Shown piece after piece: positions 34,246 through 37,543 of a stretch of 64,000 bases of DNA. The notes under the pieces are model-generated. The model did not search any database. It saw nothing but the letters and a program-made list of their open reading frames with translations, and was not told the origin of the DNA. Positions within the stretch are counted from its first letter, which is position 1, and the number at the start of each line of letters is the position of its first letter. A program made the position numbers and the translations under genes. This DNA is from Cladosporium halotolerans (lineage: Eukaryota): positions 124,001 through 188,000 of the forward strand of contig NW_027191467.1 in assembly GCF_011745625.1 (NCBI RefSeq), given 5' to 3'.

Positions 34246-35367
34246 ATGTCCAGCACGCAGTACCTCCAGGTGCCCAAAATACTACCGCATAGGAAGTCCC
34301 GCTCACGCTCCAAGTCACGGCCACGTGAGGTCGTGCCCGTCGACGAGGTCGTCTATCCTTCTGTCAAAGACCGACGGCGCCTGCATTCACCGCCCATGCC
34401 AGCGGCTGAGCCGCGCATCAAACCCCAATCGAACGGCTACACCCACACATTCTCTCTCACAAACGGCCACGTCAACAGCCCATACACGAACGGAACCACG
34501 AAAGGCATCACATACCCCGCGACGAAACCCATAACACCACCCACGATCGAAACGAGCAACCACGAAGACTTGAACGGCGACATGTACACCCTGCGTGACT
34601 GCTCCACGCCCCCTCCCGAACCGCCCTTGCGCCAGAAAATCATCGGCGCCTGGAAACTCGAGTCCTACATCGCATACCCCACGCCCGAATCGCCCATACA
34701 GCGGCCCACCTTCCCGATGACCAAGAACGTGACGGGCTTCATAATGTACACGCCGGACGGCTACATGTCCGCGCAAATGCTGATCCCGGGCCAACAAAGC
34801 TTCAAGCGCGGCGAGGGCGAGGAGCCGCAGTGGGCGGAGGCGGGCAAGAGGTTCTTCGCGTACTGCGGGCCATACTACATCAGCAACGAGGGCAGCGGGC
34901 GCGAGGAGATCCTTCGCCACACGTTCCAGGTCTGCAACCTGCCCGGCTGGATCGGCGACGTCCAGGTGCGGACGCATCACTTCGAGGAGGACGGCCAGGT
35001 GCTTGTCCTCGGCAGCGAAGAGCCGACGGAGATCAAGGTGCGTTTTCTTTTTGTTTAGATCCCCCCGATACGGCTATGGGAAGCCGTTGAGAGATTTGGC
35101 GCTGCTTGCGCGGATATGTGGGACTCCCAGCCAGCCCAGCAACGGCTTTGTGGGCCTCAGGCGTGGGGGAGCAGCGCAACAAACAACGGCTTCCCATGGC
35201 GCAACACGACGCCTTGGAATGTTCAGCTTTAACAGCGAACTAACAAACCACAACAGGGCGACCGCCGCGTTCCCGTACTCAAATGGCGCCGAGCCCGCGA
35301 CAACACAAGCGGCACTCCGCCTGCGCCCATGCCGCAGATCAAAATCTCAGGGCCCGGCGAGCCGTGA
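34246..35367 (+). CDS. Lipocalin-like domain protein (Lipocalin_5 type); 2 exons, about 300 aa
   Basis: IIGAWKLESY, GFIMYTPDGYMSAQ, FAYCGPY, PGWIGDVQVR, LKWRR motifs. Intron 35038-35256 (GTGCGT..ACTAAC..CAG), phase 0. Confidence 0.88.
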
Positions 35368-35454
35368 CTAGGCCGGCGGCCCTCTCGACGCGCCGGCCGC
35401 TCGAGGTCGCGATCAAGGTCTAGCCTGAGAGGCCGCTCGCCGCATCGCAGGTGA
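35365..35454 (+). other. Putative stop-codon readthrough element (TGA CTAG plus hairpin) and RS-rich extension
   Basis: TGA-CTAG at 35365-35371; GGCCGGCG/CGCCGGCC stem at 35371-35398; in-frame LGRRPSRRAGRSRSRSRSSLRGRSPHRR ending at TGA 35452-35454. Confidence 0.65.
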
Positions 35455-35980
35455 AAGGAAGGGAAAATGAGCAGGCGGGATTTTGTCTCACGGCTCACAC
35501 ATCTCTTTTGCCCAACACATTAGCCCGGGTAATGCGCGGGACGAAACTACTGGCCGGTTTGCCATACACGAACACTACTACGTCCGAGAGTCCACCGCAG
35601 GCAGGGCCTCGCGGGACAGACGAACGCTCCGTCAATCTCGTGCTCCAATCGAGTCGAGTACGGCGATGAGCCATTTCGGGTGACCCGGAAAGGGCGCCCT
35701 CTTTTTACACGCGAAATATACCACAACATAGCGGGGCGTTTTTTTTTTTGGTTTTTGCTTTGCTTGCTTTATCTCTGTCGTTTGCCATATTCCCCAGCTG
35801 GCTACGAGTTTAGGCAGGCTTCTGTACGATACGCAACATCGCGACGAATTGGAACACGGAATCCGAATTGGAGGAGGGGATCACTGCAGGCACCTCGCAG
35901 AGAAGGAAGCCATGTGGCCGGGACTTCACAGGAGGAGGAGATAAGGTACATACTCACTTTACCGATCCATCCCATTCCCA

Positions 35981-37543
35981 TCAAACCCGCCAAACACACA
36001 TCAGCCTATCGTAAAAGCTCGTGCTCACCACCGTCCTCCCTTCCCCCTCCCCTCCCTGCCCCTCGCCCTCTTTTCTGCAAGGCTGCACATCACTCCCGTA
36101 GTTCATACTCGCATGCTCCTCGAACCTGGCAAGAACACTGAACTCCCACTCCGACTCGGGCGCCGACCGCTGGAGCCGCACGAGCCGCGAGCCGGCGTGC
36201 ATGCAGCTTGCTAGGAGGGTGTAGGAGTCGGCGAGGGGCCTGTGTGTGTCAGCGGAATGATCGGGTCGATGTTGCTTTCGTTGGGGGTAATGTTGGGCCG
36301 CGTGGGGGGGGTTGGTGCAACGCGAGAATTAAGGAAGCATAGTGGTTGCGGGTCGGCTCCGAGAATGAGTGTTGGGTTGGGTTGAGTTCGATCTGCCGGG
36401 CTCAGGTCTGCGATGATAATGCGTTCTGCGCGTCAGACGCAGCGTCGGGTTGCAGGGCAGGGCTGCAGGGGTGAGGTTTGCTTTCTCGCGTGCGAGCGCG
36501 TGGCGAGGCGCTCCGGTACCGTACCAGGGCGCTGTGGCGGGCTGACTGCTTGCTTGCTTGCTTTGACGGGGACGAAAACGAAGTACGAGAACACCAGCCA
36601 AAGAAAATTCTACACGTACCTGTCGTTGCCGACGGCGCTACCGTCATTCAGCATCCTGAGCCTCCACACGCCGCCGCCAAGGTGCAGTTCGGCGAGCACC
36701 TGCCTGCGCCCGACGGGCGGCGCCGCCAGCAGCCGGATGTGGTCGTCGTAGCTGCCGGTGACAAGCAAATCGTTGGCGAGCGGGAGGATGGAGGTTACGC
36801 CTGCTTGGTGGGTTTTGCGGTCGGTCCAGAGGGGGTTGGAGGGCGTGTCGGTGTCGGAAGGGGAGAGCTGAGTTGCTTGGAGGACGGCGTCGTCGCCGCC
36901 GGAGAAGATCAGGGAGGCGTCAGGGGAGAAGGCGAGGGTCCAGGGTTCGAGAGTGTGGGTTGCTATCTCGGTTGTGGTGGTTTTGCTGGAGGAGTGCCAG
37001 GGCTGGGAAGTGGTTGTGCTTTGGCAGATAGAGACGGCGCCGTCGGAGAGGGTCACTGCTATCGTGTCTGGTTGGTTTGGGTGCCAGAGCAAGTCCAGGA
37101 CGAGAGTGCTGGGGTCAGTGATTTGATGATTACTTGTGTGCTTTAATTCTCCGGCCTGTGCGTCGATTGTGAAGAATTCCAGCGATCCAGTAGATGTTGC
37201 CACGCATAGCAAGTCTCCGAGCTCGGCAACATGAGGCGTCCATTCGAGGTCCAGTATTGCTGAGTCGAGCTCTACCGTTTGGATATGTGTGCTGCAATCG
37301 CTATAAGTAAGCTGTATAATCGTCTCCACTGAAATGCGTTCCTACCTACAATTCTGTGTCCTCGAGCTTGTAAAGAATCAAAGTGCCGGTACGCTTCTGG
37401 GGTTCGTCGCTCGATTCCTGCCCTTCATTGTTGCGGTGGAGAAAGTATGTGCCAACGACATAGTACTCGGAATGGGACGGACAAAATGCCACTGCGCTCG
37501 GAGGAATGTCCAGTATTGTCGATTTTGCGGATGAAATCTCCAT
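35981..37543 (-). CDS. DPH7: Diphthine methyl ester demethylase (WD40; Dph7/Rrt2)
   Basis: LDIPPS..YYVVGTY, ILDLEW, HTLEPWTLAF, FSGGDD, HQAGVTSI, TGSYDD, LGGGVWRL, ASCMHAG, HASMNYGSD, STSFYDR motifs. Introns 37292-37349 and 36240-36619. Confidence 0.9.

Follow-up and report, generated by a model that had tools for sequence, protein, structure and literature searches.

The stretch of DNA analysed here, referred to below as the window, comprises 64,000 nucleotides (nt) of the forward strand of a contig from Cladosporium halotolerans (NW_027191467.1, positions 124,001 to 188,000), and all coordinates are positions within it. The window contains a two-exon gene on the plus strand that starts at the ATG at 34246 and encodes a lipocalin-like protein of 300 amino acids. 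The gene ends with TGA CTA G and is followed by an open frame for a short arginine/serine-rich (RS-rich) tail, which would bring the protein to 329 amino acids if the stop codon were decoded. Comparison with orthologous loci reveals that the stop codon context is conserved and that the extension evolves with a frame-specific coding signature, and we consider it likely that programmed ribosomal readthrough of the UGA adds the tail to the lipocalin-like protein.

The gene model agrees with two sets of data. The 219-nt GT..AG intron is removed in contigs from three runs belonging to three studies (X1, X3, and X5), and annotated orthologues have the same exon junction (...EIK|GD(K/R)R...) and the same C-terminal end (...PQIKISGPGEP). 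A ctaac at 35240–35244 in the intron resembles a branch site, a label that comes from reading the sequence. The coordinates of the features of the locus are collected in Table 1.

Over residues 133–259 the protein scores 85.1 bits with the Pfam family PF13924 (Lipocalin_5), for which the cut-off is 25 (E = 5.7e-24), and this family is the single Pfam domain found in the window protein; no RNA recognition motif (RRM) was found. There are 217 protein homologues across fungi of the Capnodiales and Mycosphaerellales type, and the nearest named protein, from Cladosporium inversicolor, is 83% identical. In the structure model of a 300-residue orthologue (P0012), almost all of residues 1–113 have a predicted local distance difference test score (pLDDT) below 50. 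The β-barrel strands are predicted between residues 134 and 278 with a pLDDT of about 75–90; exon 2 supplies the final strand of the barrel (residues 266–278), and the pLDDT falls to 42 at the C terminus. When the model was compared with the Protein Data Bank (PDB) using Foldseek, all matches were lipocalin- or calycin-type barrels, and they were weak, with a best E of 7.2e-4 and a target-normalised template modelling (TM) score of at most about 0.5. A sequence search of the PDB gave no relative below E = 0.5. The protein is thus a member of PF13924 with a predicted β-barrel fold. A literature search on PF13924, judged by titles and abstracts, found no paper on this fungal protein.

Table 1. 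Positions of the gene, the stop codon context, and the associated RNA features in the window
Feature	Position	Strand	Description
Exon 1	34246–35037	+	264 codons; RKSRSRSKSR motif, a stretch modelled with low confidence, and the greater part of the PF13924 β-barrel; from open reading frame (ORF) and translation
Intron	35038–35256	+	219 nt, GT..AG; joint in contigs of X1, X3, and X5
Exon 2	35257–35364 (35257–35367 with stop)	+	36 codons; last barrel strand and flexible, highly conserved C terminus ...PQIKISGPGEP
Leaky stop context TGA CTA G	35365–35371	+	stop TGA at 35365–35367
Readthrough extension	35368–35451	+	28 codons, LGRRPSRRAGRSRSRSRSSLRGRSPHRR; in-frame translation
8-bp stem GGCCGGCG/CGCCGGCC	35371–35398	+	specific to the window, not conserved
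Candidate hairpin CUCGA-C-GCG (CCGGC) CGC-UCGAG	35384–35405	+	near-invariant; 5-nt loop
Second in-frame stop TGA	35452–35454	+	conservation collapses directly after it
Conserved block tttttacacgcgaaatataccacaacatagcggggc followed by a T-run	35703–35750	+	within untranslated sequence at the 3' end (3'UTR); 13 of 17 sequences checked

A sequence-only reading of the window had proposed that the gene ends in a readthrough context and continues into an RS-rich tail, and the features on which it relied are present. The TGA CTA G can be read directly at the end of the gene, and 28 codons remain open in frame up to the next TGA. The RS run is written in mixed synonymous codons (CGC TCG AGG TCG CGA TCA AGG TCT AGC) and is not a microsatellite, as Tandem Repeats Finder reports nothing in 35300–35520. 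The similar motif that had been pointed out near the N terminus, RKSRSRSKSR, occupies residues 16–25 (34291–34320, in exon 1). Within the window, however, these features taken alone do not exceed chance. TGACTAG occurs four times against 4.6 expected, which is no enrichment, and none of the other three sites ends a long ORF that looks conserved; an open frame of 28 codons is unremarkable in a sequence of about 59% GC. The significance of the readthrough signal therefore comes from the comparison with orthologues.

The stop codon context itself had been described as one of efficient readthrough in fungi and mammals, and this is borne out by the literature. Experiments with Ustilago maydis and HeLa cells have established UGA CU(A)(G) as a core motif that drives readthrough (PMC4207609, PMC12233894). 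The motif needs a UGA stop followed by the two bases CU, whereas an A at +3 helps and a G at +4 is frequent (PMC4207609, PMC12233894).

A scan of metagenome contigs gave 32 orthologous loci. Thirteen of these are Cladosporium-like (L001–L011, L030, and L031), with 79–96% identity to the window in exon 1. The first stop is TGA in all 13, so that together with the window it is UGA in 14 of 14, and the codon that follows is CTA G in ten loci, CTT G in two, and CTC G in one. The expectation that orthologues keep a context of the TGACTA type thus holds for all 13 loci in the form TGA CTN G, which fits the published core, and the CTA, CTT, and CTC variants retain both UGA CU and a leucine codon. The extension is 29 codons long in ten loci, 30 in two, and 31 in one, compared with 28 in the window. 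It ends with TGA in ten loci and with TAA in three, and neither a frameshift nor an in-frame stop, which would have spoken against translation, interrupts it in any of the 13. The tails are homologous across the clade, as exemplified by LGRRNSSRRAGRSRSRSRSSHRGRSPSRK and LGRSNSRRAGRSSPSRCRSSGRGRSPNRR.

Outside this clade, three loci that resemble Teratosphaeriaceae (L012–L014, with the nearest proteins from Meristemomyces and Hortaea) all have TGA CTC G, followed by shorter tails such as LGRRAT and LERRATRRGSDSSSPSRS. L012 (3997–4020) and L013 (1797–1853) have in common the TGA CTC G and a tail that starts with L(G/E)RRAT; a TAA follows after six codons in L012, and L013 and L014 have 18 codons that encode a serine-rich tail. 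The context may accordingly have arisen before the Cladosporium tail did, or on two separate occasions. The 16 more distant loci, two of which match proteins of Friedmanniomyces endolithicus, have neither TGA CTN G nor a similar tail. Their contexts are TGA followed by GTC, CGC, AGT, TCA, ACA, GGA, ATG, or TAA, or else TAG AAA. It follows that the normal end of the protein is ancient and that the tail is clade-specific. A homologue with 75% identity (P0014), when read in the +1 frame, is compatible with TGA CTT GGA CGG (Leu-Gly-Arg) and an S/P-R repeat in frame 0; this tentative observation is not counted as evidence.

Coding tests on the extension used 11 distinct sequences, namely the window and ten others, as three of the 13 loci duplicate others across the extension. 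On the tree of the coding sequence (CDS) the window is one of three lineages, the others being groups A and B. Frame 0 of the extension contains no stop in any of the 11 sequences, compared with stops in 9 of 11 in frame +1 and in 7 of 11 in frame +2. Mean pairwise nucleotide identity rises from 0.57 over the final 90 nt of the intron to 0.83 in exon 2, stands at 0.77 in the extension, and drops to 0.52 in the 90 nt past the second stop, where the multiple alignment breaks down directly 3' of the stop codon. Three indel events are found in the extension (+3, +3, and +6 nt), all of whole codons. Variable columns at codon positions 1, 2, and 3 number 14, 10, and 25 of 33 each in the extension (Fisher p = 2.7e-4) and 7, 4, and 31 of 36 in exon 2.

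The ratio of nonsynonymous to synonymous substitution (omega) was estimated with the codon model MGK+F1X4 on the fixed CDS tree. It is 0.189 for the extension, 0.034 for exon 2, and 0.067 for the whole CDS. A likelihood-ratio test of the extension against omega = 1, in which kappa was scanned, gave 2dlnL = 58.2 (p = 2e-14), and with F3X4 frequencies omega was 0.22 (p = 6e-12). Pairwise values for the extension in six pairs ranged from 0.10 to 0.28 for the nonsynonymous rate (dN) and from 0.81 to 1.40 for the synonymous rate (dS). As a frame control, the same alignment with stops masked gave an omega of 3.4 in both shifted sense frames. Conserved arginine positions swap between the AGR and CGN codon families (AGA, CGG, and CGA). 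As the mixed codons of the RS run had suggested, the extension thus appears to be selected at the protein level, with an omega of 0.19, a third-position bias, and whole-codon indels, and from the comparison it carries a frame-specific signature of purifying selection that ends at the second stop.

Spliced contigs from X1 and X5 bridge the exon junction and run through the stop codon and the extension to at least 35900, so that the RNA-like contigs do not end before 35454, an end that the sequence-only reading had named as speaking against it. No joint other than the 219-nt intron was reported in the contigs. Among the strain variants in four runs, none is listed in 35281–35492, compared with 17 sites in 35493–35900.

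The sequence-only reading had also described an 8-bp GC stem immediately after the stop codon. The two arms, GGCCGGCG (35371–35378) and CGCCGGCC (35391–35398), are indeed exact reverse complements, but the stem is complete in the window alone. Across the 11 sequences 73.9% of cells are paired, pair 17–39 is kept in 2 of 11, and there is no compensatory change; as a conserved element the stem is rejected. A different candidate hairpin at 35384–35405 is near-invariant, with 98.9% of cells paired and seven of eight pairs that never vary, and no covariation is observed. Its distance from the stop codon is 16 nt in the window and 19 nt in the group A loci. Stem-loops that stimulate readthrough typically lie about 8 nt after the stop codon, and the hairpin here is farther away. 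RNAalifold found compensatory changes in none of 20 predicted pairs of the consensus, the folding of the 96 nt that follow the stop is matched or exceeded by 134 of 200 shuffled sequences (z = +0.51), and Rfam gave no match at E <= 1 in 35000–36600. The hairpin, proposed from its near-invariance, may modulate readthrough. The hairpin falls within a 23-nt core, TCTCGACGCGCnGGCCGCTCGAG (35383–35405), that is nearly invariant including its wobble positions, compared with exon 2, where 31 of 36 codons differ at the wobble position. The core has four variable sites, three of which are in the loop or bulge of the hairpin. This pattern points to a constraint on the nucleotides in addition to coding, for instance from a hairpin or from binding at this site.

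Several points weigh against translation of the extension and have to be set beside the coding signature. The sample consists of three lineages from a single genus-level clade, represented by metagenome contigs throughout, and the codon alignment of the extension was guided by peptides; its ambiguity in the RS repeat can depress dN. Some of the conservation, that of the 23-nt core, lies at the nucleotide level, so that protein need not explain all of the constraint. The RNA nature of the runs is a guess apart from the spliced joint, and contigs are blind to transcript ends, strand, expression level, and minor isoforms or editing variants. Among 36 proteins with an end of the SGPGEP type (of 121 examined; no search was made with the readthrough peptide), none is an orthologue that has a sense codon in place of the stop and continues into an RS tail. 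The single one of the 36 that proceeds past ...GPGEP, an annotated protein from Polychaeton citri (P0071), does so as LTSSYF; the leucine after GEP may reflect loss of the stop in that gene or merely an artefactual gene model. Finally, one antisense frame has the same wobble positions as frame 0, and it too lacks stops in all 11 sequences and gives an omega of 0.24. As the antisense frame scores alike, periodicity and omega are not sufficient to decide the strand. Three features secure the sense reading: the extension directly continues the frame of a conserved CDS, it starts at a stop codon that is conserved and putatively leaky, and its conservation ends at its own second stop.

We infer from these observations that readthrough is the probable route past the stop codon. 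UGA CUA G would form a weak termination signal, at which some ribosomes would decode the UGA with a near-cognate tRNA and then translate 28 codons up to the second UGA. The outcome would be a minor isoform of about 329 amino acids beside the 300-residue form, with an efficiency that the near-invariant hairpin 16–19 nt past the stop may tune. The added tail would be basic, Arg/Ser-rich, and probably disordered, prolonging a C terminus that is already flexible, and it would have been kept by selection in Cladosporium-like fungi.

Among the invariant or near-invariant positions, L-G-R opens the tail, S-R-x-A-G-R-S occupies its middle, and R-S-S-x-R-G-x-S-P-x-R closes it. The consensus of the peroxisomal targeting signal type 1 (PTS1) is [SAC][KRH][LM]. 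The C-terminal tripeptides of the tails are HRR, SRK, NRR, NRT, SRT, and RRG, none of which fits, and the tail is not a PTS1, as had been noted for the window. SR (serine/arginine-rich) proteins contain one or more RRMs and a long RS domain. Membership of this class was rejected, because PF13924 is the only domain found and the tail has 28 residues with a short RS run, so that the tail is RS-like and the protein is not an SR protein. R/S-rich N-terminal motifs like HRKSRSRSKSRPRE are present in most orthologues across the order, including lineages that do not have the readthrough tail. In the clade with the tail, the long isoform would have RS runs at both termini.

The closest functional analogy is offered by Npl3p of yeast. 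The kinase Sky1p is reported to phosphorylate the most C-terminal RS dipeptide of Npl3p, which promotes its Mtr10p-dependent nuclear import (PMC2175287). By analogy only, the tail also has an RS dipeptide followed by a proline near its C terminus (RGRSPxR[RKT]), together with an RS run of the type recognised by SR protein kinases (SRPKs) (PMC2175287). Unlike Npl3p, the lipocalin-like protein has no RRM or RGG domain, and the tail has a glycine at −2, whereas SRPK2 is reported to select against glycine near the phosphosite (PMC2175287). Our best guess, which follows from this analogy, is that the tail is a phospho-regulated basic signal that would alter the localisation or the partners of the protein, for example by SRPK- or AGC-kinase-dependent nuclear or nucleolar import. 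The sequence-only reading had likewise proposed a substrate of SR kinases with nuclear or RNA targeting. A more encompassing proposal is that the locus represents the first conserved non-peroxisomal case of programmed readthrough in filamentous fungi, in which UGA CUN G and the hairpin, with its unusual spacing of 16–19 nt, set a regulated ratio of isoforms and the RSP site near the end of the tail is a kinase-controlled signal for nuclear or nucleolar import that would send a lipocalin-like protein that binds small ligands to a second compartment; we regard this combination as speculative and, taken as a whole, rather unlikely.

The tail might instead be produced by readthrough and have no targeting role, either as a destabilising disordered tail that tunes dosage or as tolerated noise, which seems improbable to us as an overall account. 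The stop-loss extensions of Fusarium are often destabilising disordered tails (PMC13123824), and the C terminus of the lipocalin-like protein is already of low model confidence. By this analogy the tail could be destabilising, an option on a par with an import signal. Pure noise is contradicted by the omega of 0.19 and by the invariant residues, which leave room for a role as a degron.

Explanations that do not involve readthrough are less probable still. The extension could be a conserved untranslated 3'UTR element, such as a hairpin or a protein-binding site, and the open frame and its RS-like translation could be by-products of GC-rich sequence. In favour of this, the 23-nt core is near-invariant at wobble positions and able to form a hairpin, and a second conserved block farther downstream reveals that the UTR does bear non-coding constraint. 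Outside the core, however, substitutions are strongly biased to third positions, and omega is 0.19 in frame 0 compared with 3.4 in the shifted sense frames. The three indels are all multiples of 3, conservation ends exactly at the second in-frame stop, and the conserved leucine after the first stop changes synonymously between CTA, CTT, and CTC. We therefore consider an untranslated element quite unlikely.

Alternative splicing could join exon 1 directly to an acceptor at CTAG|G (35369–35370), giving an isoform without exon 2. Exon 1 ends in phase 0 and position 35371 is in the frame of the extension, so that the join would be in frame, and Freitag et al. in 2012 reportedly described fungal cryptic PTS1 isoforms that arise by alternative splicing as well as by readthrough. 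The CTT G and CTC G variants in L003, L004, and L005 destroy the AG of CTAG and still keep the extension, which argues against a splice acceptor at this position. In addition, the sole joint in contigs of three runs is the 219-nt intron (contigs drop rare forms), an isoform lacking exon 2 would be missing the barrel's final strand, and the branch-like ctaac is about 126 nt from the supposed acceptor. This makes splicing a very improbable source of the extension.

A-to-I editing of the mRNA, which would convert UGA to UGI to be read as tryptophan, is equally improbable as a way past the stop codon. It has a precedent in Fusarium and Neurospora, where stop-loss editing is reported to create functional disordered C-terminal extensions (PMC13123824). 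Fungal A-to-I editing is described there as biased to UAG stops and conserved across Sordariomycetes (PMC13123824), whereas all 14 sequences here have UGA as their stop, and the source is a Dothideomycete relative. Four runs list no A>G difference at position 35367, although contigs can miss minor variants.

A minus-strand gene that overlaps the 3' end and owns the open frame is the least probable of these explanations: the antisense frame described above is free of stops in all 11 sequences, but its upstream limit lies anywhere between +101 and +506 as counted from the first stop, 7 of 11 sequences have no methionine upstream of the extension (one of them has none at all), the frame extends over exon 2 as well, whose constraint the sense gene already explains, and no ATG-started minus-strand ORF of at least 40 amino acids covers 35368–35451. 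Recoding of the UGA as selenocysteine was rejected, as no match resembling a selenocysteine insertion sequence was found by Rfam at E <= 1 in 35000–36600; Ascomycota are not known to possess the selenocysteine machinery.

Readthrough of this kind has known counterparts. The PTS1 isoforms of Tpi1, Art1, and Rpe1 in Ustilago maydis and of human MDH1 and LDHB (Stiebler et al. 2014, PMC4207609) arise at the same UGA CU(A)(G) context. They are alike in having a short extension, a context and an extension that are conserved among orthologues, and two isoforms expected per mRNA (PMC4207609). In contrast to the PTS1 cases described there, the Cladosporium tail is Arg/Ser-rich and basic with no PTS1, and its host is an uncharacterised PF13924 protein instead of a core metabolic enzyme (PMC4207609). 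Readthrough genes of animals (mammals, PMC4132726) and of Arabidopsis (PMC9293766) were recognised by the same type of evidence, a coding signature between two stops after UGA CUA G. The payloads of animal and plant extensions are reported to vary, and some Arabidopsis extensions contain a nuclear localisation signal (PMC9293766). Those cases were confirmed by reporters or ribosome profiling (PMC4132726, PMC9293766), whereas the Cladosporium case is known from its sequence. The stop-loss editing of Sordariomycetes (PMC13123824) also gives a short, disordered, conserved C-terminal extension of a single gene in a filamentous ascomycete; it differs in acting on UAG, by mRNA editing and in the sexual stage, compared with a conserved UGA in a readthrough context in Cladosporium.

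The mechanism and the type of evidence are thus already known from the fungal PTS1 cases, from animals, and from plants, and what differs here is the unusual payload. A search of the full-text literature, with subscription journals and supplements outside its scope, found, as judged by titles and abstracts, no fungal readthrough case with an RS-rich tail, no conserved fungal extension of this kind, and no readthrough in this group of fungi. Functional readthrough in fungi has so far been tied almost wholly to hidden peroxisomal signals on metabolic enzymes. The same leaky context with a different payload suggests that filamentous fungi draw on readthrough more generally to generate isoforms, and that conserved protein sequence is missed where annotations close at the first stop. 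With a 7-nt context, an extension of 84 nt, and a candidate hairpin of 22 nt, the locus is compact and can easily be moved into reporters. It could be used to study what beyond UGA CUA G sets the level of readthrough in fungi and what an RS-rich tail does to a lipocalin-like protein conserved across fungi of the Capnodiales type.

Farther downstream, the 3'UTR contains a second conserved feature in otherwise unalignable sequence. A block centred on ATATACC, with the form TTTACAGCG..ATATACCAC..ACAT.GCGGGG and usually followed by a T-rich stretch, is situated 268–351 nt past the first stop. It is present in the window, in L001–L004, L007, L008, L010, L011, L030, and L031, and in the more distant L013 and L014. 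From its sequence the block may be the region of a poly(A) signal or another cis element. In the T-run and the tract that follows (35739–35763), the window and the contigs of all four runs differ by deletions of 3–4 nt, indicating strain-level variation in homopolymer length.

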